Below the pieces are notes generated by a model that saw only the letters and a list, made by a program, of their open reading frames with translations, had not been told where the DNA came from and did not search any database. The position numbers and the translations under genes were made by a program. Shown here one piece after another: positions 3,447 to 41,536 of a DNA stretch of 64,000 nt. Origin of the DNA: a virus; the IMG/VR virus record IMGVR_UViG_3300045988_123612; one strand, 5' to 3'. The number at the start of each line of letters is the position of its first letter. Within the stretch, counting starts at the first letter, position 1.

Positions 3447-5678
3447 AAGGAAAATGAAATAAAACGGGTTAAGGCTCCTAACGGGGAGCCTTCCGTTCTT
3501 TACGAAAGTGCTTTAAAAGTATTAGGAAACAGCGAGCGGGCTCTTCAGGTATGGGCTAAGGCTTACACTCCTGGTTTTTTGTCGTATTACGGTCATTGGA
3601 ATAACCCGGCTCCAGGGGAGATGTTTAACACCGATCCCAATGGCGAACCTCTTTTAGAAGATGTGCTGTCGTATATGAAGCGTCAGACTTATTTTGCTGA
3701 TCCTTTAACGGCTCAGGATGTTAAGGATGTAAGGGATTTCCTTTTGTCTACTCATTATTTTTTCAATGCGTCTTCATTGTCTAATGCTATTCTCTTCGAT
3801 TTTTATGTAGATGGCAGTTTGATACTGAATGAGCAGAAATTAAGGAGATCCGGTTTGTATGATGAAACAGAAATAAGTCGTATTTTATCCGATCCTTCTG
3901 TTTTAAACGAGGTTTCGACTTCCATGAGAAAGTTAATAGATTCTTCTATTAACGAACATGATAGGGAAAAAGATAATTATTTTATGTCTATTGACTATCA
4001 GTATGGTCCTATTGTTTACAAGGAGGGAGTGTTTAACCAATTTGGTAAAAAAGTACCATATAATCCTTCTGAGCTTTATTATGCTATGCGTAAAACAGTA
4101 GCCGGCATAAAAAACTTTTCTGAATTTTCATCTGCTTTTGAATCGTTGAGAAATTCATATCCTGAACTGGTTGAGAAATTCGTTTCTGATAAAGAATTTG
4201 CCGAATCTATGTTTGATGAGTTCTCATCTACGAATAAGATTCCGGTAATAAACATAGAAGGGGATGATGTGGTGGAAGGCAAGAGAAGATCTTTGTCTAA
4301 GCTACAAGATCTTTCTTATTACAATTCCGGCAAAATAGAGTTCCTAAGAGCTCGTATATCAGCTTATTTACATAGGGCTAATGCCGACACCGAATCCGAT
4401 TTAAGAAGCATGATATGGGATATAGAAGAGGCTTGTACGTGGTTTGGCATAGATATAATAGGGACATCGGAAACTTATGATGGCACAGAAGAATCTTTGA
4501 ATAAGATAGATAATTTGATGCTGGATCTTGATATTTATGTGGCCAGGCATAATGATGTAAATTATGCTCCAACGCTGGCATCTTCTATAGATGATGTTCT
4601 TGGTGATAGTACAGACTATTATTTTGGATTATTGCCGGAGTATATGGATAATTTGAATATCGTTTATTCTGAATCCGATATAGACCCAGTAGAGGCATTT
4701 GAGAAACATTCATTGCTTAAGGTAGGAGATAATCTATATCAAAGGATCAGCAAAGATGATCTTAACGAGATGTATCAAATATCAACAGTATTAGCCAAGC
4801 ACAACCTAACTCATTTTTCTACTAAAATATATCCTGAATCTTGTTTTAAGAACGGCGTTTTGGATAAAGAGAAAGTACGGAACGTAGATAATAATACGCT
4901 CATGGCTTCCATTAAAAAATACGTCAGATCGTTCATGGATTCTCAGAACACAGAGGACATGATAATGACCAGGATGGCGTTTGGGCACCCTGCGGTACTT
5001 GACGTTCCTTACGTGGATGTGGATCGGGAGTATAGTCGATACATGAACAAAAAACAAGATAGCGAAAACCCATTATCCTTATTCGATTTATACCAATCTT
5101 ACCTTGACAACAAACTCCATAAAACAAAATTATATGATAATGCCTATAAGTATCTTGACTTCAAACCTGGTCCATCTTTGGGTCTTATTTCTGATGATCC
5201 TGATATTTTGAAATCAATAGAATTATCTTTATCTGGAAAAGACAGGTTGATGTTGTTTGATTATAGCATGACCAGTACCGACCCTTCTTTATCAGAATTG
5301 TTTTATTTGGAGAAGTATGACCCTTCGTATGCCGGGAATGATTTTGAACACTATTTTTACACCAGGCACCCGTATTTGTTAAAAGAAAAATCGGGCCCTA
5401 ATATCGTAGAGCAAGATGGTGTTATAACAGCCGAAGGTATTTATGATAATTTTATAAGAGTAGGTAATAAGATATGGTCTAAAGTAAGCGAGAGTAGTTC
5501 CGGCTCTATCTACCAAAATCTGACAGGAACCGAATCAGAGGTGAAATACGATTCTACTCAGAAGGCTAAGACGGTAGAAACCGATTACGCTCCATACCAA
5601 AACAGATCTGGCTTGACGCAAGACATGACCGTAAGCAAGCCTGAATTGGATGATCTTAATAAATTGGAATGTAGGTAA
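3420..5678 (+). CDS. hypothetical large protein (752 aa)
   Basis: Long ORF; ATG inside repeat A2 (MGVKCQIEK...); no recognisable motif; followed by hairpin terminator. Confidence 0.55.
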   Translation: MGVKCQIEKKENEIKRVKAPNGEPSVLYESALKVLGNSERALQVWAKAYTPGFLSYYGHWNNPAPGEMFNTDPNGEPLLEDVLSYMKRQTYFADPLTAQDVKDVRDFLLSTHYFFNASSLSNAILFDFYVDGSLILNEQKLRRSGLYDETEISRILSDPSVLNEVSTSMRKLIDSSINEHDREKDNYFMSIDYQYGPIVYKEGVFNQFGKKVPYNPSELYYAMRKTVAGIKNFSEFSSAFESLRNSYPELVEKFVSDKEFAESMFDEFSSTNKIPVINIEGDDVVEGKRRSLSKLQDLSYYNSGKIEFLRARISAYLHRANADTESDLRSMIWDIEEACTWFGIDIIGTSETYDGTEESLNKIDNLMLDLDIYVARHNDVNYAPTLASSIDDVLGDSTDYYFGLLPEYMDNLNIVYSESDIDPVEAFEKHSLLKVGDNLYQRISKDDLNEMYQISTVLAKHNLTHFSTKIYPESCFKNGVLDKEKVRNVDNNTLMASIKKYVRSFMDSQNTEDMIMTRMAFGHPAVLDVPYVDVDREYSRYMNKKQDSENPLSLFDLYQSYLDNKLHKTKLYDNAYKYLDFKPGPSLGLISDDPDILKSIELSLSGKDRLMLFDYSMTSTDPSLSELFYLEKYDPSYAGNDFEHYFYTRHPYLLKEKSGPNIVEQDGVITAEGIYDNFIRVGNKIWSKVSESSSGSIYQNLTGTESEVKYDSTQKAKTVETDYAPYQNRSGLTQDMTVSKPELDDLNKLECR

Positions 5679-5751: not shown

Positions 5752-6182
5752 TCATATATGCACGTATATCAATAACATACAAGAAAAGTTAGATTTTCAT
5801 TGTTTATGAATTATTTTTATTAAGTTTGCAATATTAGTTTCAGGAAGGGATTATAGAAATAGGAAAAAGTAAGAACCGGACGTAACTAATAACAGTAGGA
5901 AATGAGAATCAGTACCATCAAACGTAACAACAGCATTCATCTTATGTATAAAAACATTATGAATGATTTAGGTCAATTAAGAACTGTAGTTTCAAAATCC
6001 TATATTTATAATCTGATACAAAATCAAACCGGATTAAGTATCAGAACTATATCCCATGTCTTGAATCACACAAAAGAACAGGATACAGATTCTTTGTGAA
6101 AACCATACATTTTCATACATTTGTGTGTTCTTTAGTTTTTAGATTTAAGTTTTTCATGGTATTAGTTTAGATTAGTGTAGAT

Positions 6183-9219: not shown

Positions 9220-9588
9220 ATGATAGTATATGATTTAAATTCAGGACACAGAGAATATCCTGGATATGACGAGATAGAAGACAGACGAGGTGGAGGCAGA
9301 GGCAGAAGCCGGCGTTCTGATGGGACGTACATGGGGTACGGTGGTGGTATTTACGACCATTACGGTATGCATGAGAAGATGAAGGAAATGGAAGAGCGAG
9401 AAAACGAGCTGGAAGAAAGGGAAAGAAGGCTTGAAGAGCGCGAACGTCGTCATGAAATGGAGGACCGGGAATACCGGAGGATGGGTTACGAATCCTACCC
9501 GACCGATTACTATGGAGACGACAGATACTACGGTGACGGACCTCAGATGCGTAGAGGTCGCGGACGTGGCAGAGGTCGTTCTTATTGA
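9220..9588 (+). CDS. Arg/Gly (RGG-like) and Arg/Glu-repeat low-complexity protein (122 aa)
   Basis: GGGRGRSRRS ... ERENELEERERRLEERERRHE ... RRGRGRGRGRSY; GC-richer than surroundings. Confidence 0.4.
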   Translation: MIVYDLNSGHREYPGYDEIEDRRGGGRGRSRRSDGTYMGYGGGIYDHYGMHEKMKEMEERENELEERERRLEERERRHEMEDREYRRMGYESYPTDYYGDDRYYGDGPQMRRGRGRGRGRSY

Positions 9589-9681
9589 GGAGCAGACGCA
9601 GAGGATCCAGCTTATCAGAAATATGTAGATACTTACGGCTACCATTTTTCTAATGCTCTCGCTGATGAGGCGGTAAAGAAG

Positions 9682-9975
9682 ATGGTCAACGTCGATGGAT
9701 CCAAGAGGATCTGGAAGCAGCCGGAAATAAAAGATATTTTTGAAAAGTGCGGAGCGAAGAAGCCGGATAAAGCGACATGGGGCGATGTCCAATATGTCTT
9801 TGCAATGTACTATTCGGATGGTTTTCCGAAGGTCTTCAAATGTGAGAACGAGTTGGTGAAAGCTACGTTAATGTATTTGGATGATCCGGATGCTCCCGAA
9901 GGAGTAGCCTTTATAAGATGGCTTGCCGTGCAAGATTACCTCGGCGAAAAAATAAACTGGAAGGATCTGACCTGA
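9682..9975 (+). CDS. hypothetical protein (97 aa)
   Basis: ORF co-directional with neighbours. Confidence 0.4.
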   Translation: MVNVDGSKRIWKQPEIKDIFEKCGAKKPDKATWGDVQYVFAMYYSDGFPKVFKCENELVKATLMYLDDPDAPEGVAFIRWLAVQDYLGEKINWKDLT

Positions 9976-10338
9976 GATCCAGATCCAGGTCCTTCCGGTG
10001 GTGCGGGAGCCATAGTAAAAAATATGATTCCCGCATTCCCGTTTTTCCCGTTTGGAAAAAAAAGAATAAAAATATTATACCGGTCGGCGGACAATAGAAT
10101 ACCCGTGGCCGGTTTGTTTCACATAACTTTTTTTTGACATGAATATAGCACACGAATCTAAATCGAATAAAACCCCATTGTATTTAATAGGAGAGTTGAT
10201 TGGCGTACCGAATACGGTTATGGACTCAGCATTGCATGAACTGAAAGATAGAATAGACAAAGACCCTAAATATAAAGATGTTAAAAATTGGCTCGAATCT
10301 TTACCCAAGATCTGAACCTATTTTTTTTCAATACCGGG

Positions 10339-10372
10339 CCCGATGCGATTTTAACGTATCGGGTTTTTATTT
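10339..10372 (+). terminator. rho-independent terminator
   Basis: CCCGATGCG/CGTATCGGG 9-bp stem, 7-nt loop, then TTTTTATTTT. Confidence 0.45.
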
Positions 10373-10443
10373 TAATTCATATTGTTTTATTTTAAATCTA
10401 ATTAATTCATGAATGTCGTACTTTTGTTGAAAAAGTATTCTAT

Positions 10444-10671
10444 ATGGAAAATAAGGAAGATTACGTTGGTTACGAAGATCAAGAACTGTGTAACCGGTAT
10501 TACAAAGAGGCTGAAGCCATGAGGCAAAAGCAGGACTGGTCTCGTCTTAGGGCTGTCCCTGCTCCGGCCAAGGGAACGCCATCGCCCGGCTGGGGTCAGC
10601 TTGGACGTGGAAATGATGTCCGTGTTAAGTACGTTAGCATCAATTCAGGATTAGGAGGGGACAGATTATGA
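10444..10671 (+). CDS. hypothetical protein (75 aa)
   Basis: ORF; stop overlaps next start (ATGA), suggesting translational coupling. Confidence 0.4.
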   Translation: MENKEDYVGYEDQELCNRYYKEAEAMRQKQDWSRLRAVPAPAKGTPSPGWGQLGRGNDVRVKYVSINSGLGGDRL

Positions 10672-10883
10672 CCGTAGAAGAATTAGCTAATAAAAGATAC
10701 GGTGGCGAATTTGTTTTCATGCTTGGTCATTTGGAAGGTGTAACAAGATTCGTTTTTGAATGTTTCGATCCCAGGCCTGATCACGAAGGTAAAAACACTT
10801 ATATAGTTTCTTATTTTGATAAGGGACTTCGTAGAAGAGATGTGGTAGATGTGCCATGTTATATGAATGTTTTAGCAAAATAA
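10668..10883 (+). CDS. hypothetical protein (71 aa)
   Basis: ORF coupled to upstream gene. Confidence 0.4.
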   Translation: MTVEELANKRYGGEFVFMLGHLEGVTRFVFECFDPRPDHEGKNTYIVSYFDKGLRRRDVVDVPCYMNVLAK

Positions 10884-10889
10884 ATTAAA

Positions 10890-11310
10890 ATATTGTAAAT
10901 ATCGTGGTTAGAATCGCATATTTCGGAACCGATGGCTGCCCTGGTCATCATGTTATTTCAATACGAGGTAAATTTACGGAAGAGGATGTTAAGGTAATAG
11001 AATCTGTAGATTGTGATATCCTAAATAACATTAAAACAATATAATTTCATTATAAGGTTTTAATGTACCATAAATGGTCCGGATATTAGCCTAAGCCTTG
11101 AAACGAAGGCTACGTTATTTGAGAATATATAGTTACCTACGGATGTTTGCCCAAGTCCGTAGCTCTAAGGATGGTGATTAAACAGGAGTAGTGTATTTGA
11201 CGAAACAGTGTTGCCATTATATAAAACCTCTTATAACATTGGCGATGGGTACTAACAGGATGAAATATTCCTGACTTATGTTGAATAAACATTAAAAATG
11301 TTTGTAGATA
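10890..11310 (+). ncRNA. candidate omegaRNA of the IscB locus
   Basis: ~410-nt ORF-free region immediately upstream of and overlapping the iscB start; several local hairpins (GCCTT-GAAACG-AAGGC ~11092-11108; CTACGGA-12nt-TCCGTAG ~11137-11162; CAGGA-8nt-TCCTG ~11247-11264); exact ends not determinable by eye. Confidence 0.45.
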
Positions 11311-12530
11311 TGGTGTACGTACAAGACATAGATGGTAAACCTATGATGCCAACAACGAGGCATGGTAAGGTTAGGAGACTGCTTAAAGATAAAAAGGCAG
11401 TCGTTGTGAACCTATGTCCGTTTACCATCCGATTAACGTACGTAACATCTGATTACAAACAGGAAATTGTGTTAGGCGTTGATGCTGGTACTAAACATGT
11501 TGGTTTATCAGCTACGACGAAAAGCAAAGAACTTTACAGTAGTGAAGTAATTCTTAGAAATGATATCGTAGATCTTTTGTCTACCAGAAGGGAGCTACGA
11601 AGAACAAGACGGAATAGGTTAAGATATAGAAAACCTCGTTTCGATAACAGAATAAAAAGTAAGCGTCCTGGATGGGTAGCACCTTCGGTGAAATACAAAG
11701 TAGACGCTCATATTCGTGTTATTGAAAATATTTGCTCTATACTACCAATATCTCGTATTGTTATTGAAGTAGCTCAATTTGATACTCAAAAGATTAACAA
11801 TCCTAATATATCAGGTAAGGAATATCAGGAAGGAAACAAACTTGGTTTTTGGAACGTAAGGGAGTATGTTTTAGCAAGGGATGGGCATAAATGTCAGTAT
11901 TGTAAAGGAAAATCGAAATCCAAAATCCTTAATGTCCATCATCTTGAATCCCGAAAAACGGGAGGTGATTCCCCTTCTAATCTTATTACCTTATGTGAAA
12001 CTTGTCACAAAGAATACCATAAAGGTAATATAGATTTGAAGATCAAACGGGGATCGTCGCTTCGCGACGCGGCCGTAATGGGGATCATGAAATGGAAGTT
12101 GTATGAAGAACTGAGATCCAGATACGACAGAGTTTCTATGACGTTTGGTTATGTTACAAAATACAATAGGATTAAATACGGGATTGAAAAATCCCATACA
12201 TCCGACGCGTTTGTCATTTCTAAGAACATTAATGCGAAACGAATCGGATGTCAATATTTAAAACGTTTAATTCGTAGGCATAATAGGCAAATACATAAAA
12301 TGAAAATTTTAAAAGGAGGAAAGAAGAAAAACAATCAAGCTCCTTTTGAGGTTTTTGGTTTTAGGTTGTTTGATAAAGTGTTGTATAATAATAAAATATG
12401 TTTTGTTTATGGAAGGAGAAAATCAGGGAGTTTCAATATCAGGGATTTCAACGGAGAAAATTCAAAAGATGTTTCACGCAAAAAGTTTAAACTCATTAGA
12501 GGGAAGAGGCATCCGATTATATTAAAGTAA
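11298..12530 (+). CDS. iscB: IscB, OMEGA RNA-guided nuclease (RuvC-split + HNH), IS200/IS605-family associated
   Basis: N-terminal PLMP-like motif (GKPMMPTTRHGKVRRLL); RuvC-I LGVDAGTKHVGLSA; Arg-rich bridge helix RRELRRTRRNRLRYRKPR; RuvC-II IVIEVAQFD; HNH CQYC...VHHLESRKTGG...NLITLCETCHKEYH; RuvC-III KSHTSDAFVIS; basic C-terminal domain; 410 aa is typical IscB size. Confidence 0.8.
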   Translation: MFVDMVYVQDIDGKPMMPTTRHGKVRRLLKDKKAVVVNLCPFTIRLTYVTSDYKQEIVLGVDAGTKHVGLSATTKSKELYSSEVILRNDIVDLLSTRRELRRTRRNRLRYRKPRFDNRIKSKRPGWVAPSVKYKVDAHIRVIENICSILPISRIVIEVAQFDTQKINNPNISGKEYQEGNKLGFWNVREYVLARDGHKCQYCKGKSKSKILNVHHLESRKTGGDSPSNLITLCETCHKEYHKGNIDLKIKRGSSLRDAAVMGIMKWKLYEELRSRYDRVSMTFGYVTKYNRIKYGIEKSHTSDAFVISKNINAKRIGCQYLKRLIRRHNRQIHKMKILKGGKKKNNQAPFEVFGFRLFDKVLYNNKICFVYGRRKSGSFNIRDFNGENSKDVSRKKFKLIRGKRHPIILK

Positions 12531-12567
12531 ATGAATAGATTTAATAAATTTAATAGAAAAACGTATC

Positions 12568-12873
12568 ATGTATAATAAAGAAATAGTAATATGCGCCGCC
12601 ATCTGGGTGCAGGACGGCAAGAAGCGTCCCCATCAGCCCATCAACATACCATCCGGCACCGTGTTCTGTGGATTGAGACATTGTTCTATCATTTCTCAGT
12701 TTGTAGCTTATGGTGTTGCTCATAAGAACCGCAGTGTTCAAGGATTTTTGACAAGCAAGAATCGGTTTTTAACAAGAGAGGAAGCGTCTGAACTTGTTAG
12801 AAACAATAATCAGGAGATGGTGGTAGATAGGAATGCCATTAGAGAACAATTGTATTCAGAAGATCTATATTAA
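12568..12873 (+). CDS. hypothetical protein (101 aa)
   Basis: ORF 37 nt downstream of iscB stop. Confidence 0.4.
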   Translation: MYNKEIVICAAIWVQDGKKRPHQPINIPSGTVFCGLRHCSIISQFVAYGVAHKNRSVQGFLTSKNRFLTREEASELVRNNNQEMVVDRNAIREQLYSEDLY

Positions 12874-12890
12874 CTAAAAAACAAAATAAT

Positions 12891-13241
12891 ATGGGATTTA
12901 TAATCAAAAAGTCAATCATTTATAATATGATGGACGGCAATCAGTTAGAGTATGAATTTGACAACATAAATTTAGATCATATCACATTTAAAGGTAATGG
13001 TAAAGAACCTTTTTCATTTAACAGAGTCCTTGTTGAAAATTTAATTGAGACATTTGAGACTATGCAGGATATATACTCTGATAATTACGGAATTAAGGTT
13101 TATACCGGTAATTGCATAATTCAACTGAATGTAAATCCAAAGAACTTAAGTGAATCCTTTTTTGACGTATATGATAGAGATGGGATGAAATTGATATATA
13201 GCATACAAAATAGTATCTTGAAAGAAATGTTTGTCATATGA
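12891..13241 (+). CDS. hypothetical protein (116 aa)
   Basis: ORF; overlaps next start. Confidence 0.4.
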   Translation: MGFIIKKSIIYNMMDGNQLEYEFDNINLDHITFKGNGKEPFSFNRVLVENLIETFETMQDIYSDNYGIKVYTGNCIIQLNVNPKNLSESFFDVYDRDGMKLIYSIQNSILKEMFVI

Positions 13242-14052: not shown

Positions 14053-17000
14053 ATGACATCAACGTGTATTATTAAAAGAGATAATAAAAAGAAAGTTGTT
14101 TCTGTCTCTACCAGATCAGGGGACAGGTCTATGTTGTTTGATAAAATAGCATCTATTCCTCTTATGGAGAACAGGGAACGGGCTACTACTGTTTTTAAAA
14201 CCGTATTTTCTAATAAGTTCTTAAAGGCTTTTGGCGACTGGAGAAGGAATGTACCTGTTAATAAACAGGCCTACAATAAGGTGAAATCCAACATCGATCT
14301 TATTCCGGAAGCCTATAGGGAAAGGGTGCTGGATAAGGCTTCTAAGATGAGTAACCCTGTTCTTGTGTCAAAATCAGATGCACCTTATGAAATCCAAGAA
14401 TCGGGCTTTGGATTCTACAGCCAAAATCTGGGTGATAATATTATGTTGGTGGATGCTATGGTCCCGTCAAGTATTTCCGTACCGGAAGGACCTGGAATAG
14501 ACGCCGGGCAGTATCTACAAGATGCTATATCTTCGGACTTCACTCCCGTATCTATGGTACAGGATAAGGGTGTTAATTATATGGTTATAAAAGACGGTCT
14601 TAAGATATTTAGCCCAGAAGAGTTACCACAGACAGATTCTAATCCTGTGGGTGTAACGTATCAGACCGGAGAGCCTCGTTTGTTTTTCATGAACGATCGT
14701 AGTCAATTATTTGAAGATTACGGAGAAGCTCTTCGCTCTGGCGGGAATGATATTAGAATAGGATTCTTATCAGGCACCGTTCAAGAATCTGCCTGGGATG
14801 GCGTGGCAGACATTACTTACAAAGCTGGAAAGTATGTTCTTAATAATCCCAAGTCTTTTATACCGGTCATGACCGCTTCTGCTTCTACTTCTTTATCAAC
14901 AAAAGGCGGGATAATTAACTACCTTATAAAGAAAGGTCTTTTGTCAGGATCTAAGATATTCGATCCTGAAACAAGAAGCTATTATCTTACAGGAGAAGGT
15001 CATACAGGACAAATTAGACTTTTCAATTCAGCCTTATCATACACTGAGCTCCGTAATCATTTTGGTTCCGATGTTTCCATGAACGACCAGGGTATGATAA
15101 CCATAAGCTCGTTGGATAACAGTAAGGTAACTATGAGACTTGCCACCGGAGGAACGGAAAGGGTTAGTAGGGAACAGATAAAGAACGATCTTAAGTCAGG
15201 AAGATACAATGAATTGGACGCCAAGTACGATCATTTTGATGCGCTTGTAGTTTCATTCATATTAGAAGACAACGATCTTTATGCTGATACTAAAGCTAAG
15301 ATCGTATCAGATTATAGCAGGCAGGAACGTGATCAACGAAATTCTATTGTCGAGATACTGAAAACTCTTGGCGTTAGTGTCATAGGTATGACCGACTATA
15401 TAGAGAAGTACCAAACCAAATACGGGCATGAACCTTCTGCTAAGGCATTGGCGGATATTGCCAATAACGTAATAGCAGTTGGTGAAGATGCTACTTTATC
15501 CGATTTAGTAGAAGAAACAGCCCACTTCCTTGTAGAGGCATACAGAGATCAGAATGCTGTTGAGGCTGTTCTGCAAGATGTAGAAGGTACGGAAGAGTGG
15601 AACCAATATGCAGGTCAGTATTATAATACATACGGTAAGGTATATGAAGGCTCTGAACTTGATAATGCTGTTAGGAGAGAAATTCTTGGAAAGATCCTCG
15701 CCAGGGAGATGCAGACCGGCACAGCACAGGCGCCGGTAGAGCCCACCTCCTTCCTGGGGAGCGTCCGGCAGCTTCTCTCTGGAATAGTAAGCTGGCTTAA
15801 ATCAACTTTATCTACCCAAAGACAAGATTTGAATAACGTTATTAAAAACATTCGTGATCTTGCCATTACCGACATAGATAAAGGATTTGACACCTCTCTG
15901 TTAAAGGATAATGACTTTACATTATACTCCCTTTCTTCTATGAACAAGAACAAGTTTCTTGAGTCCAAGATCAGATCACTAAGAAAAACATTAAGAGACT
16001 TACGTCAGATAAGCTCTGATAGGGCTGTAACTACGTCTATGACCCTTGCTCAGCTTAAGACCATAGAAGATAAGATAAATAAGGTAGAGACCGAAATAGA
16101 CAAGAATGAGATGGCGGCTGCCATGAACAGCATGATCTCCACAGCCGAAGCTCAGGTCAGATACTTAAGTAATGTGGTGAACACCATCCTTCATGGTGAT
16201 ACCAAAGACGGCAAGCTTCATTTCAATACCAATGATCGAAAGAACGTAGATATTATCAACAATCAGGTTCTTCCGATCATGAACGATCTTCGAGGATATA
16301 TCCGTAACAGAAGTACCGAATTTGATGAACGTGAAAAGCAGGATTATACAAATAGGATCAATACCGTCATTGCCGACATCAATGGTATTCAGTCTGATAT
16401 TAAATCAGTACAAGACCTTGATGAAAGCACGTTGCTTGATAAGTTAATGAACGAACTTCATGTGCCGGCAGATAAGGTAAAGAGAGTAAAAGAATTTTTC
16501 GACAAGGTTCAACACGATGTTTCTTGGATAAGTAGGTGGTTTGGTATATTAGAGCATTCTTCCAGTCCGTTCAATAACGCTCTTGGAGCTATGATTGCCA
16601 AAGACAATTACAATGCGATGGTGAATGCCCAGCCCGCCATATCCGACTTCCTGGCATATGCGAAAAAGCATGGTTTTAACAAATCTGAATTTGAAAAACT
16701 GCTTCAGAAAGTAGACGGCAAAACTTCTAATTACCTTCGTAGTGCTCTTGATATGGCTAAATACGATCGTAATAAGAAGCTGGCGCAGATGCGAGCGTTT
16801 GCGACTGCCATGAACATAGAGATATCAGAAGAAGAAATTGGTGATGTGGTTGACAATAACCGTAATTACGTATTTAAAAGAGAAGTAGTTGACAAGGATG
16901 GAAATACGGTTACTGAAAACGCTAAATTCAAACCATCGTCTGATAGAGTTAATACCGATATTTTTACCATCGAGCAGGAAAAGATCTATACAGAGCAGAT

Positions 17001-20000
17001 GGAAAAGTGGGATGCTGAAAATTCGGAACTGGAATTTAGCGAAAGTTATGCCACAAGAATGGAATCCATATACAAAAAGGCTGAAGAAGAATTAGGGCAT
17101 CCGGTTTCTCAAACAACCAAAGAATACCTTAATGCTCTATCCAGGCAAAAACGGATATTGAGGCAGCCTTTTATTGATAGCGGTGGTAATTTTGATGAGG
17201 CCTCCTATTTTAAAAGCAGCAATTACGAAGAAGAAGGACTGCTTCGTAAACAACGTAAGGAAGCAGCTTCAGAATACATATATGTAGGAACCAGGAGAGT
17301 GGAAAAAACCGGCGACCAACTTAAGATGGCCAAAGAAATACAAGCCATAAATGAAGTTTGGAGAAAGGAATCAAATAATGTCACTAATGCCGTATCAGAA
17401 TCGTTTTTGCAAAAATTAAGAACGATTCAGAGCGAGTCTGGAGGAGAAGCTGCGCTGAAGACGCTTATGTTGGGGGGTCACCTGTCATTCAACGATCGGT
17501 TTTGGAATGACGTAGAATCAGAACAGTCGGCGCGTACCGAATCAAATAACAAGGCTTCGTATCTTAAAATGGCGCATGATATCATTAGTTCTACGACAAG
17601 TGATAGAGATGCGACTGACGTGGATTCGATTGTGAAAGATATAGAAAAAAATAAGGCCATTATCAAGGAAATAATCGGAAACAACCGAGATGTGGCTGAT
17701 ATCGGAGAAATTAACGAAGCGACATTTACCTCATCTGAAAGAGATGCTTTTAGGGCCGCATCTGAAGCTATTGAAGCTGATTACGCTATCTTAATAGATT
17801 ATGCTAAGATGGTGGGTCTTGAAGATATTGATAAGTACCTTACTAAAAGCAGTAAGGCCGAAAACGAAGTAAATCAGTCTTATTTAAATGCTCTTGCTGA
17901 CTCCAAGGAAGTGGAATGGAAGTTCGTACAACGTCATACTACGGCGAAGAAAGCAAAAAGGATTCAGGCTTTAAGGGATAAGCTGTTTAAGGCTGCTGAT
18001 AACCGATATCTGTTTACCGTATCTGAAACCAACTACCTGTCAGAAAAGCTTGGTATAAGCAAAGAATTAGACGGTAGAGATTTTAGGAATGCTGTCAATA
18101 CTAAGATGGCCAGCTTGTTTTTAAATAACACAAGAGAATCAGGTATAGAAGAGGCTAATGCTATTGTTAATGAATTTGCCAGAAGTCAAGTCTTTTCATA
18201 TTACAAACGCATGACTCCTACCGGATATGCGGCTATGCTTGGTAAAATAGGTCGAGGTGAGATAGACGTGGCACAGATGGTTAAAGACGTACAGAACGGG
18301 ACATCCACACAAGATTATGGTATGAATATATCGTACCTGTCTTTCGACCCTGCAAGAGCGTGGGTGGCTGAATCTGAAGCTGAAAATAGCGGTCGTAACC
18401 CAGATTATGTAAAAGATCATGGGTATGGTTATCGTATGCCCAAGAAGAGCCTGTATCGTGATGAATCGTATTTCAATGACTTCGGCATTAGATATGATGC
18501 TGATGGTAATGAGATTGCTACTAAAAACGTAGAGCAATGGAATATGATTCAAAAACTTAAGGAAATAAAAAGACAATCCCTTTCCTTATACAAAGAGCAG
18601 AGCCCCAATTTGTATGCTATTCCACAGATATCCAAACAAGATATAGAACGTATGGAGGGATTGGGTATCAACTTCAAAAATACGGTTCGTAATTTTGTAT
18701 CAGATCTCTGTCTGGACAGAGTAGACGATTCTCTATACGGTAAAACCAGACAAGGGGAAGTATATGATCCAGAAGATAGGATTAGGTCTATACCTAAATA
18801 CTACATATATGAATTAGAGAACCAAGATGACGTATCTCATGATTTTGGTTATTCTTATTCGATGCTTATGATGCAATCATCGTTATACAACGAAAAGCAG
18901 AAGTCTATAGAGCTTGCCCAAGGACTGGAGCAGATGTTACTGAATAAGCAATTTGAAGGCGGTAAGAAAGCTGAGGCAACTCAAGCATACCAGATGTTTA
19001 GAGACTTCTTTAATGACCATTATTATGGCATTAGGATGAACACCAAGAAACTTACGGTTAACATCGGTGGATACACGATAGATCTTACAAGAATTATGAT
19101 GGCCGTTGAAAGATTTATGTCGGTCATGAACTTAGCGCTGTCTCCGTTTGTGGCAGCTACCGGCGCCCTGACAGGTCATATCAACCTCATCATGGAATCT
19201 GCCGTAGGACAGTATATAAGCAAAGACTCCCTTAAATACGCATCGGCTGAGTTTTCACGTCTTGCGCCATCTTGTATAGCAGAAACCGGAGACATAGATA
19301 GGAAAAGCAAATTATATGTCATAGGTGAGAGAATGGGGATATTCAATATCCGAAATCGTATGTATGGTGCCGGATACAATAGAGCGGCCAGGACCTTAAT
19401 GCGTTCGCCTATGTATGCTTTTATGGAAATCCTGAACTACCCTCTTGATCCGCAGGTTATGATTGCTACTATGGACAATGTTCGTTATTACAAAGGCCGG
19501 TTCTACACGTTCCAAGATTTCAAGATGGAAAAAGAACGCAATAAAGAACAGAGTACCATAAAAAGAGAATGGAACGCATTAAAAGATCGTACTTTATGGA
19601 GTATGGTAGACGTCGTGGATGGAAAGGTGGTTGTAAAGCCGGGATCGGGTGTTACTGTTGAGGAAGTTGAAACCCAGATGGCTATAACCAGGAATCAAGT
19701 CCGTAGCTTGTCGCAGATATGTAACGGATCTTTGAATGAAGAAAACCGAACTGCCGCATCGCGCAACTGGATAGCCAGGTTCATGACCGCCCACCGAGGC
19801 TGGCTGGTGCTGGCAGCTCAACGTCTGTGGAAAAGACGTGGCTTCAATTTCCAGACAATGCAAGAAGAGGAAGGGTTGTCAATTACGTTAAAGAATATGA
19901 TAGCCAAAACATTTAGCCTGGCTTCCGAGTCTGGTATGAAAAACATCATAGATGCCTGGAACGAAAATAAAAACAATATGAATGAGGTAGAAAAAACTAA

Positions 20001-20475
20001 TCTCAAACGCCTCAGTGTCTATGCCGGCACGTTCCTTATCATGCAAGCCGTATCCATGCTTCTTGCCGGATGGCGTGATGATGATGAAAACGAAGAAAGT
20101 TGGCTTACTCAATTTGGATCTTACGTTGGATTCAGAACCATAAACGAAATAGCTTCACAGATGCCGTTTATTATGGAGCTTAACGTTGTAGATATCATTA
20201 ACGACCCGTTTGTTATGGGAAGGAAGCTGAAGGATCTTACCGATCTTAGGAATTATTCACTTGATAAAGTAACATCCGGTACATACAAAGGAGAGTCTAA
20301 GCTATTTAGGCAACTCGCCAAACAGACGTTTATCAAACAATGGTATAATATCAAGACGCCGGAAGACGTAGCGCGCGCCTATAATTGGTGGCAGCAGACA
20401 AACAACAAGTCAATGATGTTCTTCATCGGCGCTACTCCTGATTCGGAAGGAGACGATGACGTTAGTTACAAATAG
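14053..20475 (+). CDS. giant hypothetical protein (2140 aa), possibly virion-packaged/ejection or tail-associated
   Basis: Single uninterrupted 6.4-kb ORF; mostly Asp/Glu/Lys-rich alpha-helical stretches; hydrophobic segment near C-terminus (LSVYAGTFLIMQAVSMLLAGW); no catalytic motif recognised. Confidence 0.6.
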   Translation: MTSTCIIKRDNKKKVVSVSTRSGDRSMLFDKIASIPLMENRERATTVFKTVFSNKFLKAFGDWRRNVPVNKQAYNKVKSNIDLIPEAYRERVLDKASKMSNPVLVSKSDAPYEIQESGFGFYSQNLGDNIMLVDAMVPSSISVPEGPGIDAGQYLQDAISSDFTPVSMVQDKGVNYMVIKDGLKIFSPEELPQTDSNPVGVTYQTGEPRLFFMNDRSQLFEDYGEALRSGGNDIRIGFLSGTVQESAWDGVADITYKAGKYVLNNPKSFIPVMTASASTSLSTKGGIINYLIKKGLLSGSKIFDPETRSYYLTGEGHTGQIRLFNSALSYTELRNHFGSDVSMNDQGMITISSLDNSKVTMRLATGGTERVSREQIKNDLKSGRYNELDAKYDHFDALVVSFILEDNDLYADTKAKIVSDYSRQERDQRNSIVEILKTLGVSVIGMTDYIEKYQTKYGHEPSAKALADIANNVIAVGEDATLSDLVEETAHFLVEAYRDQNAVEAVLQDVEGTEEWNQYAGQYYNTYGKVYEGSELDNAVRREILGKILAREMQTGTAQAPVEPTSFLGSVRQLLSGIVSWLKSTLSTQRQDLNNVIKNIRDLAITDIDKGFDTSLLKDNDFTLYSLSSMNKNKFLESKIRSLRKTLRDLRQISSDRAVTTSMTLAQLKTIEDKINKVETEIDKNEMAAAMNSMISTAEAQVRYLSNVVNTILHGDTKDGKLHFNTNDRKNVDIINNQVLPIMNDLRGYIRNRSTEFDEREKQDYTNRINTVIADINGIQSDIKSVQDLDESTLLDKLMNELHVPADKVKRVKEFFDKVQHDVSWISRWFGILEHSSSPFNNALGAMIAKDNYNAMVNAQPAISDFLAYAKKHGFNKSEFEKLLQKVDGKTSNYLRSALDMAKYDRNKKLAQMRAFATAMNIEISEEEIGDVVDNNRNYVFKREVVDKDGNTVTENAKFKPSSDRVNTDIFTIEQEKIYTEQMEKWDAENSELEFSESYATRMESIYKKAEEELGHPVSQTTKEYLNALSRQKRILRQPFIDSGGNFDEASYFKSSNYEEEGLLRKQRKEAASEYIYVGTRRVEKTGDQLKMAKEIQAINEVWRKESNNVTNAVSESFLQKLRTIQSESGGEAALKTLMLGGHLSFNDRFWNDVESEQSARTESNNKASYLKMAHDIISSTTSDRDATDVDSIVKDIEKNKAIIKEIIGNNRDVADIGEINEATFTSSERDAFRAASEAIEADYAILIDYAKMVGLEDIDKYLTKSSKAENEVNQSYLNALADSKEVEWKFVQRHTTAKKAKRIQALRDKLFKAADNRYLFTVSETNYLSEKLGISKELDGRDFRNAVNTKMASLFLNNTRESGIEEANAIVNEFARSQVFSYYKRMTPTGYAAMLGKIGRGEIDVAQMVKDVQNGTSTQDYGMNISYLSFDPARAWVAESEAENSGRNPDYVKDHGYGYRMPKKSLYRDESYFNDFGIRYDADGNEIATKNVEQWNMIQKLKEIKRQSLSLYKEQSPNLYAIPQISKQDIERMEGLGINFKNTVRNFVSDLCLDRVDDSLYGKTRQGEVYDPEDRIRSIPKYYIYELENQDDVSHDFGYSYSMLMMQSSLYNEKQKSIELAQGLEQMLLNKQFEGGKKAEATQAYQMFRDFFNDHYYGIRMNTKKLTVNIGGYTIDLTRIMMAVERFMSVMNLALSPFVAATGALTGHINLIMESAVGQYISKDSLKYASAEFSRLAPSCIAETGDIDRKSKLYVIGERMGIFNIRNRMYGAGYNRAARTLMRSPMYAFMEILNYPLDPQVMIATMDNVRYYKGRFYTFQDFKMEKERNKEQSTIKREWNALKDRTLWSMVDVVDGKVVVKPGSGVTVEEVETQMAITRNQVRSLSQICNGSLNEENRTAASRNWIARFMTAHRGWLVLAAQRLWKRRGFNFQTMQEEEGLSITLKNMIAKTFSLASESGMKNIIDAWNENKNNMNEVEKTNLKRLSVYAGTFLIMQAVSMLLAGWRDDDENEESWLTQFGSYVGFRTINEIASQMPFIMELNVVDIINDPFVMGRKLKDLTDLRNYSLDKVTSGTYKGESKLFRQLAKQTFIKQWYNIKTPEDVARAYNWWQQTNNKSMMFFIGATPDSEGDDDVSYK

Positions 20476-41227: not shown

Positions 41228-41536
41228 TTAATTAGTTGATTTCTTTCCTTTCTCTATACTATTTTTAAATCTTTCAGAACACCACTGCAAAACGTCCATC
41301 ATCATCATCTCATTATTAGATAAGATACCTTTTATAACTAACGCCAATTGATGCTGTGACATTCTTTGGCTCATATCAAATCTTCTTTCCTCTTCATTTA
41401 CTATCGTAGCCACGAAATACTTACACCCCTCTAAGTGCGTCAGGGCTTCAATCATAGCTTCTTTTATCTCTTTTTCTTCCATTATGTTTGTTTTTTTTGG
41501 GCAAAGATATGTCTTTTGATAATAAAAAAGATTCAA
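41228..41536 (-). CDS. hypothetical protein (102 aa)
   Basis: ORF in minus block. Confidence 0.4.
   Translation of the reverse strand: MNLFYYQKTYLCPKKTNIMEEKEIKEAMIEALTHLEGCKYFVATIVNEEERRFDMSQRMSQHQLALVIKGILSNNEMMMMDVLQWCSERFKNSIEKGKKSTN

Follow-up and report, generated by a model that had tools for sequence, protein, structure and literature searches.

The window analysed here is a stretch of 64,000 nucleotides of viral DNA (IMG/VR record IMGVR_UViG_3300045988_123612). Between positions 10,890 and 12,530 it encodes IscB, a small RNA-guided nuclease of the OMEGA type with kinship to Cas9, preceded by a structured RNA, and comparison with related loci places both of them in a mobile unit of 1552 bp (11016-12567). 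The original prediction had located the nuclease in a phage-like genome, and this is borne out: window 14001-39000 is 95.8% identical, and window 9500-10894 is 96.5% identical, to phage crAssE-Sib (OR575929), and the other open reading frames (ORFs) of the window are typical phage replication genes. crAssE-Sib is an epsilon crAss-like phage of the human gut in which Babkin et al. report two TnpB genes, with no IscB mentioned (PMC11054128). When crAssE-Sib was compared with the IscB of the window, no match was obtained.

The iscB ORF was listed as 11298..12530 (+ strand, 410 aa), and it had been read as an intact IscB with all the hallmarks in order. Every motif quoted in support of that claim is found in the ORF, in the order stated, and profile searches assign the ORF to IscB and not to plain HNH nucleases. 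Pfam RRXRR matches ORF residues 6-179 (7e-61) and Pfam HNH matches residues 199-242 (8e-10), and with NCBIfam NF040563 (guided_IscB, equivalog 'RNA-guided endonuclease IscB') a score of 358 bits was obtained against a cutoff of 175. The closest solved structures to the window protein are IscB proteins (E 1e-43 to 1e-45), namely OgeuIscB (7utn/7xht, ~1e-43), then HfmIscB and TbaIscB, with IsrB and Cas9-like proteins ranking below them. The start codon at 11310 (MVYVQD...) is conserved in all relatives; the upstream in-frame ATG at 11298 is particular to the window and a few relatives, ACG (AAAAACG) standing there in most of the others. Therefore, the true start of iscB is probably 11310, and the protein is most likely 406 aa long. 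Residues are numbered below from this ATG.

The catalytic residues of OgeuIscB, named by Kato et al. as D61, E193, H247, H340 and D343 (PMC9640706), could all be placed on the window protein by alignment to solved IscB. D61 corresponds to D58 (in GVDAG), E193 to E153 (in IEVAQFD), H247 to H210/H211 (in NVHHLE), and H340 and D343 to H296 and D299 (in HTSDAF), so the earlier statement that the catalytic residues look intact stands. The N-terminal PLMP domain appears as PMMP followed by TTRHGKVRRLL and aligns to the N-terminus of OgeuIscB. Both the split RuvC (D58, E153, H296, D299) and an Arg-rich bridge helix, RRELRRTRRNRLRYRKPRF, are present, and HNH is inserted within the RuvC (CQYC ... NVHHLE ... 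CETCH) with both CxxC pairs kept. In the C-terminal 73 aa, the part in which the wedge and TAM-interacting beta-barrel domains of an IscB would be expected, no Pfam match was found, and the alignment to solved IscB stops near residue 333.

In a scan of IMG/VR, 289 stretches were found to encode relatives of the window IscB; 79 loci were fetched, with 78-96% protein identity and mostly on phage contigs of 80-160 kb. Full-length iscB with the catalytic motifs kept is present in 75 of the 79 copies, and the ratio of nonsynonymous to synonymous substitution rates (dN/dS) against the window copy is 0.06-0.12, and therefore the gene is maintained by purifying selection. Profiles, alignments and substitution rates together show, as far as sequence can, that the window encodes an IscB in which neither the RuvC nor the HNH active site is incomplete and which is under purifying selection.

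The Rfam family HEARO (RF02033) is the RNA now named IscB omegaRNA. It matches the window at 11041-11256 on the + strand over the full model (positions 1-211), with 94.3 bits against a gathering score of 83, and is the sole Rfam family at threshold in the window. The cognate omegaRNA is thus encoded directly upstream of iscB, on the same strand. An alignment of 50 distinct versions of the region from related loci was folded with RNAalifold, which gave 57 pairs, 11 of them with compensatory change. In the core structure of 46 pairs, 99.7% of the cells are paired and 10 pairs are changed on both sides; as a control, the core pairs were slid by 1-3 columns, and at most 40% were then paired. The outer stem, P1, is formed by 11016-11022 with 11080-11086, and shows compensatory changes across five subfamilies (ATATCCG/CGGATAT, ATAATCG/CGATTAT, ATAATCA/TGATTAT, ATAACCC/GGGTTAT). 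The Rfam placement of the first outer-stem strand at 11041 was rejected, as the covariation puts it at 11016-11022. A fixed guide inside 11023-11040 was likewise rejected, this stretch being the 5' strand of a long conserved hairpin.

At the other end, an extra covarying hairpin lies at 11256-11273, 3' of the end of the HEARO model; according to Meers et al., RF02033 is without downstream elements (PMC10055086). Similarity of the window scaffold to mini elements that lack iscB (described below) stops at 11279. It is shown by this covariation that the upstream RNA is a HEARO/omegaRNA with covarying predicted helices. The proposal that some 410 nt upstream of iscB are ORF-free and encode an omegaRNA stands only in part: a structured HEARO RNA is there, and a covariance-model search finds it, but the scaffold occupies only 11016 to ~11279, whereas 10904-11015 belongs to a truncated phage gene. 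The features of the locus are collected in Table 1.

Table 1. Features of the IscB-omegaRNA locus and predicted guide target sites in the window.
Feature	Coordinates	Strand	Basis or remark
Intact target for the guide of loci L002/L007: TGGCGAATTTGTTTTC, then ATG	10703..10721	+	Exact 16-nt match (10703-10718), then ATGCTT
Phage-gene stump, codons 1-37 of a gene found complete (211 aa) in sister phages	10904..11015	+	Frame runs into the element, stop 11044 (ORF 10904..11044)
Predicted guide, GAATCTGTAGATTGTG	11000..11015	+	16 nt directly 5' of the scaffold
omegaRNA (HEARO) scaffold, the transposon right end (RE) in TnpA nomenclature	11016..11279	+	Rfam match, P1 covariation, mini-element limit
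Invariant small hairpin AUGUU GAAUA AACAU, between omegaRNA and iscB start	11278..11292	+	RNAalifold; 5 pairs unvarying in 50 sequences
iscB coding sequence	11310..12530	+	406 aa; profiles, solved structures, conserved start
Last 37 nt of the element, 3' of the iscB stop; called left end (LE) in TnpA nomenclature	12531..12567	+	A-rich, conserved TTTAAT box; common to copies at four sites; kept in mini elements
ATG transposon-adjacent motif, also start codon of the downstream 101-aa gene	12568..12570	+	16/16 right junctions
Unoccupied site for the L022 guide, one mismatch, then ATGAAA	29615..29633	-	Guide matching
Unoccupied site, exact guide-side flank of the L022 iscB-less mini element, then ATGGAA	30975..30993	-	Guide matching
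Unoccupied site for the guide of seven subfamily-B copies (L041 and others), one mismatch, then ATGAAG	41395..41413	-	Guide matching

The ends of the mobile unit were set by comparing copies with differing flanks. All 50 RNA variants start with AT, and in all subfamilies the left tip of the element reads AT followed by A or T, never ATG. ATG adjoins the element at 16 of 16 independent right junctions (14 sites of full-length elements and two of mini elements), for which the chance probability is ~5e-27 at an ATG frequency of 2.3%. One of these ATGs stands before a tRNA-like sequence, so the motif is not merely a start codon. Exact empty sites, in which the left flank is followed by ATG and the right flank without duplication, exist in other contigs for the L034, L063 and L065 sites. 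The element is always immediately 5' of ATG on the iscB strand, which corresponds to insertion 3' of CAT on the opposite strand, and it occupies at least 16 sites in this phage lineage.

A transposon-adjacent motif and both transposon ends could therefore be assigned, as had been suggested for checking. Several traits of the IS200/IS605 family are present: a one-sided short motif, no target-site duplication and no inverted terminal repeats, together with an omegaRNA bounded by the transposon end and a guide from the flank. A guide supplied by the flank at the transposon end agrees with Meers et al. (PMC10055086). Since the ends and the CAT insertion agree with the TTCAT of ISGst5, the anatomy is canonical for an IS605-type IscB element. 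At one site just upstream of a tRNA-like sequence (L058-L061, L064, L067), the occupied alleles have ATG and all five distinct naive variants have GTG, which may be escape from the motif or the reason why these alleles have stayed empty.

Similarity between copies at different sites ends at 11016, and 42 different 16-nt flanks precede the conserved scaffold start. Guides of IscB are ~16-17 nt long and lie directly 5' of the scaffold (PMC9640706). Since the DNA ahead of the scaffold start (11016) varies by site, the guide must be the flank, here GAATCTGTAGATTGTG. A 5' guide had been expected at ~10890-10920, but that stretch is the start of the truncated phage gene. When the corrected guide was searched in IMG/VR, GAATCTGTAGATTGTG followed by ATGAT was found to be exact in 85 viral (sister-phage) contigs; in sister phages such as L006, the 16-mer is followed by ATGATT. 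The window-type junction was found in only one other contig of the scan, and no other close match to the guide was found within the window. In the window itself, the guide's own DNA is followed by ATA and not ATG, because the left tip of the element is AT plus A or T. The ATA would spare the element from self-cutting.

Matching of guides between loci also predicts a chain of targeting: the L002/L007 guide would aim at the window, the window guide at L006-type genomes, and the L006 guide at crAssE-Sib-type genomes. No target for the L006 guide was found in the window. The remaining unoccupied sites of the window for guides of other copies are given in Table 1.

The guide end of the element adjoins DNA that has been lost. 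Sister locus L006 has a complete 211-aa ORF with the same N-terminus as the stump, followed by a 251-aa gene; compared with L006-type phages, the window is without ~1.3 kb at the guide end, namely the rest of the 211-aa gene and the 251-aa gene. The latter (L006 4955-5710; L001, crAssE-Sib, 4440-5195) has WDGH and Tad2-like (Thoeris anti-defence 2-like) domains, which suggests that the element is located in an anti-defence or accessory region. The crAssE-Sib locus carries the 251-aa gene and a 91-aa ORF and no element; it was considered as a simple empty site and rejected, since two other genes stand where the element is.

Among copies with the right junction of the window, the left junctions are nested one inside the next. 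Over all sites, 24 distinct left junctions were compared, and for 16 of them ATG comes next in the uninterrupted allele (chance p ~3e-21). Replacements of the same kind occur elsewhere: at the L022 site the element replaces 170 bp (a 57-codon ORF) between one ATG and the next, and at the L040 site it replaces 181 bp of naive DNA between two ATGs. The replacements may have come about either by a one-ended TnpA reaction (right end plus a distal CAT) or by recombination between two copies. As a separate observation, in L017 (~5960-5970, corresponding to window 10647-10652 and 11256-11261) iscB is kept and nearly all of the omegaRNA is lost with the upstream 71-aa gene, by deletion between two CAGGAT hexamers, which leaves a copy with no guide.

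Two of the 16 right junctions belong to mini elements of ~360 bp (L008 ~1124-1486; L022 ~4005-4362), which consist of an omegaRNA, a strong GC hairpin and the LE tip, with ATG adjoining and no iscB. Their scaffold has P1 of the form ATAACCC/GGGTTAT, and presumably they use IscB in trans. Two or more IscB elements are present in several of the phage genomes, as in IMGVR_UViG_3300045988_120989 (L004 and L042) and IMGVR_UViG_3300045988_127883 (L022 and L052); two IscB copies are found in L035 (1513-3055 and 5727-7275) and in L041/L052 (the second near 12314-13208). The elements of one genome sometimes differ in subfamily, only 4-6 kb apart.

Outside this lineage, a scan of 185,579 bacterial and archaeal species, one genome each, gave no genuine close relative of the IscB clade. 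The sole relative with more than 59% identity is L081 (NZ_JBHMEP010000019.1, 'Vibrio olivae CECT 8064'), a 20-kb contig that is 94-96% identical to the gut-phage loci L034-L039. Since this identity spans both flanks of the element, L081 is very likely phage DNA foreign to the Vibrio genome, and it was rejected as a clue to a host or reservoir, being phage contamination. GenBank phages carry more distant IscB homologues (at most 51% identity), usually labelled HNH endonuclease. The clade thus appears to be confined to the crAss-like phage lineage.

Taken together, these results make it likely that 11016-12567 is a non-autonomous IS200/IS605-family (IS605-type, 'ISC') IscB-omegaRNA element homing between epsilon crAss-like phage genomes. 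By this mechanism, the omegaRNA would be read through from an upstream phage operon, and its 5' guide would be whatever flanks the element (here 11000-11015). IscB-omegaRNA would then cut DNA carrying the 16-mer followed by ATG, that is, the junction-free allele of sister phages with the intact 211-aa gene. During mixed infection, the genome that bears the element would serve as template for repair of the break, so that the element and the adjacent 1.3-kb deletion would be copied in. Such 'cut-and-copy' homing is known for OMEGA nucleases and would here act between phage genomes. New sites would most likely be made by TnpA supplied in trans and recognising the same CAT motif. The exact matches of guide and ATG in 85 sister-phage contigs support homing or inter-phage competition, both of which were among the uses put forward for the nuclease by the original prediction.

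A number of observations weigh against this account. First, no Y1 (HUH) transposase TnpA was found by phmmer, tblastn or motif regex in a scan that covered the window and, of the ~150-kb genomes, up to 6 kb around each of the 79 copies (the query was the TnpA of ISHp608, its sequence verified as PDB 2a6m). The element is therefore regarded as non-autonomous. Only ~1.5% of iscB genes have tnpA nearby, so that its absence is expected for ~98% of iscB loci (PMC10055086), and the missing TnpA does not place the element outside the IS200/IS605 family. Secondly, the ends of IS200/IS605 elements usually carry a subterminal DNA hairpin. As single-stranded DNA, the RE side has a strong fold (z = -4.5), and the mini elements have a strong hairpin near the LE tip (z = -6.5), but on the LE side of the full-length element no significant DNA hairpin was found (z = +1.0). 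Thirdly, P1 of the window has one mismatch at its inner end, T11022 opposite C11080. Fourthly, ATG as the putative motif of IscB is deduced from the junctions alone.

The junctions are also not entirely regular. Eight of the 24 left junctions break the ATG rule (repeat slippage can account for two, another four are small deletions that share a site, and in two the naive allele has GTG), and many copies, that of the window included, are replacements of DNA between two ATGs rather than simple insertions. Intermediates, that is, simple insertions at the left-junction ATGs, were sought in 181 sequences and none was found; their lack among these sequences neither proves nor excludes a model of deletion by recombination between two copies. 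In subfamily A2 (L034-L039, L081), the 16 nt with which the element ends before ATG (TAACGCAAAAAAGGAA) are almost the same as the predicted guide, the 16 nt that close the left flank, and standard IS200/IS605 insertion should not produce such a direct repeat. Finally, because a single metagenome data set (3300045988) is the source of most of the related contigs, the copies are to be taken as population variants and not as independent lineages.

A more far-reaching view, which we regard as possible but hold only tentatively, is that a TnpA-less IscB-omegaRNA element acts as an RNA-guided gene drive between co-infecting epsilon crAss-like phages, in which more-deleted genomes attack less-deleted ones and accessory genes, including the Tad2-like anti-defence gene, are driven to loss. 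Deletions and replacements at the guide end would always stop at ATG, and because of this each new junction would be a pair of guide and motif aimed at the parental allele: L002-type genomes would target the window, the window L006-type genomes, and these in turn crAssE-Sib. The population patterns are seen directly at the sequence level, and from them we infer that a gene drive between phages may operate.

It is unlikely that spread and re-targeting proceed with no TnpA at all, IscB cleavage and recombination copying the element, and the ATG rule reflecting selection of those illegitimate joins that give working guides able to drive. Such a process would account for the lack of TnpA near any of the 79 copies, the lack of close bacterial relatives as a reservoir, the LE side with no hairpin, the many copies that replace DNA between two ATGs with no intermediates, and the microhomology deletions at this locus (e.g. 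L017, L019). However, base-precise identical ends at many sites and exact empty sites with neither filler nor duplication are a signature of TnpA chemistry. In addition, the motif is the same as the TnpA/IscB motif of ISGst5 (PMC10055086), and the retention of only an omegaRNA and the LE tip in the mini elements implies a cis requirement for both tips that goes beyond guiding.

Still less probable is that the window copy is a stranded relic or has been captured by the phage, so that it is immobile and its IscB is either functionless or of use solely in attacking sister phages. The rarity of the arrangement (the window and one other contig), the deletion flanking the copy, the P1 mismatch and the failure to find TnpA would fit such a fate. 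However, the ORF is intact in a family under strong purifying selection, neither tip is damaged or different from the tips of copies elsewhere, and with 85 perfect guide targets homing could take place with no transposase.

Targeting of the bacterial host or its defence genes, which had also been raised, gains no support, because the guide is phage sequence: it is the 3' end of a truncated phage gene, exact in sister phages, and across these copies the guide is simply the flank, so that this possibility is very remote. An ordinary protein-guided HNH homing endonuclease with an unrelated structure upstream, as the GenBank label 'HNH endonuclease' of phage homologues and the Pfam HNH match might suggest, is rejected with near certainty on profile, structure and RNA evidence, since RRXRR/PLMP, the split RuvC and the bridge helix are all present, the NCBIfam IscB profile (358 bits) and solved IscB structures match, and a covarying HEARO RNA scores above threshold.

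The homing element favoured here resembles several known systems. In ISGst5 of Geobacillus stearothermophilus, TnpA and GstIscB both use TTCAT (Meers et al. 2023, PMC10055086); on the opposite strand this motif reads ATGAA, which fits the ATG found here. The nuclease-dead mutant of GstIscB, D58A/H209A/H210A (PMC10055086), has its counterparts in D58 and H210/H211 of the window protein. ISGst5, like the window element as proposed, is non-autonomous and mobilised in trans. However, the Geobacillus elements lie in a bacterial chromosome with a known TnpA, whereas the present ones lie in a phage lineage with no TnpA found in the scanned loci, and unlike ISGst5 many phage copies replace DNA between two ATGs and are not simple insertions. 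The OgeuIscB-omegaRNA complex (PDB 7utn, 7xht; Kato et al. 2022, PMC9640706) has the same domain order and catalytic residues as the window IscB (E ~1e-43), and the two systems are alike in a ~16-nt 5' guide and a large omegaRNA with a pseudoknot. In contrast, OgeuIscB has 496 aa and the motif NNRR, and the window IscB has 406 aa, the last 73 of which are without detectable sequence match. Compared with HEARO RF02033, the 5' domain of the window RNA is larger.

Similarities to homing systems of other kinds can also be seen. The free-standing homing endonucleases of T-even phages (intronless homing, marker exclusion; PMC13565253) resemble the predicted window element in that a nuclease gene between conserved phage genes cuts a sister genome without it, and is copied in by recombination together with neighbouring DNA. 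Recognition in the T-even case is by protein, whereas here it would be by an RNA guide and a 3-nt motif, with the target reset when the flank changes, and the window IscB is outside the protein families of the T-even enzymes. In multicopy plasmids, TnpB acts as a gene drive for insertion sequences (PMC11870625), and inheritance among co-resident replicons is thus biased by an OMEGA nuclease, as is proposed here. OMEGA-type genes were already known in epsilon crAss-like phages, as TnpB in crAssE-Sib (PMC11054128); this and the plasmid case concern TnpB, which is Cas12-related and has a 3' guide, whereas the present case is IscB with a 5' guide. A 2026 review casts OMEGA systems as composite homing endonucleases (PMC13565253). 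In the literature searched, no report of OMEGA-based homing between phages was found, nor any linking IscB to crAss-like phages beyond one review naming both.

Three features of the carrier phage were recorded in passing. A 2140-aa ORF at 14053-20475 (+) is a 'structural protein' in the crAssE-Sib annotation; its size we take to be reminiscent of the virion RNA polymerase of crAss-like phages. The ORF at 9220-9588 (+) encodes 122 aa of very low complexity, with RG repeats and E/R-rich stretches, and is conserved in crAssE-Sib. A strong terminator-like hairpin at 10336-10366 (+), with a stem of 12 pairs and a T run after it, precedes the small-gene cluster leading to the element and is the core of a weak sub-threshold match to the Rfam 'trpB motif' (25 bits).

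The type of element described here is well known and its mechanism would be standard; what is new is that it has spread within a phage lineage. The standard picture is extended by a clade that seems to be restricted to the crAss-like lineage, with many sites that have matching empty alleles, RNA-only derivatives, and replacements at the guide end that would re-aim the guide at the parental allele. So far, it is in bacteria and plasmids that OMEGA nucleases have been shown to have a natural role. Because phages recombine freely in mixed infections, RNA-guided homing should be most effective in phage populations. The lineage is a natural experiment, offering 50 omegaRNA variants, 42 guides, at least 16 sites, matching empty sites, RNA-only mini elements and motif-loss alleles. 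A compact IscB of 406 aa with a very short putative motif (ATG) and rich RNA covariation data may also interest enzyme engineers. These results suggest that elements of this kind shape some of the variation in gene content seen in accessory regions of abundant gut phages.

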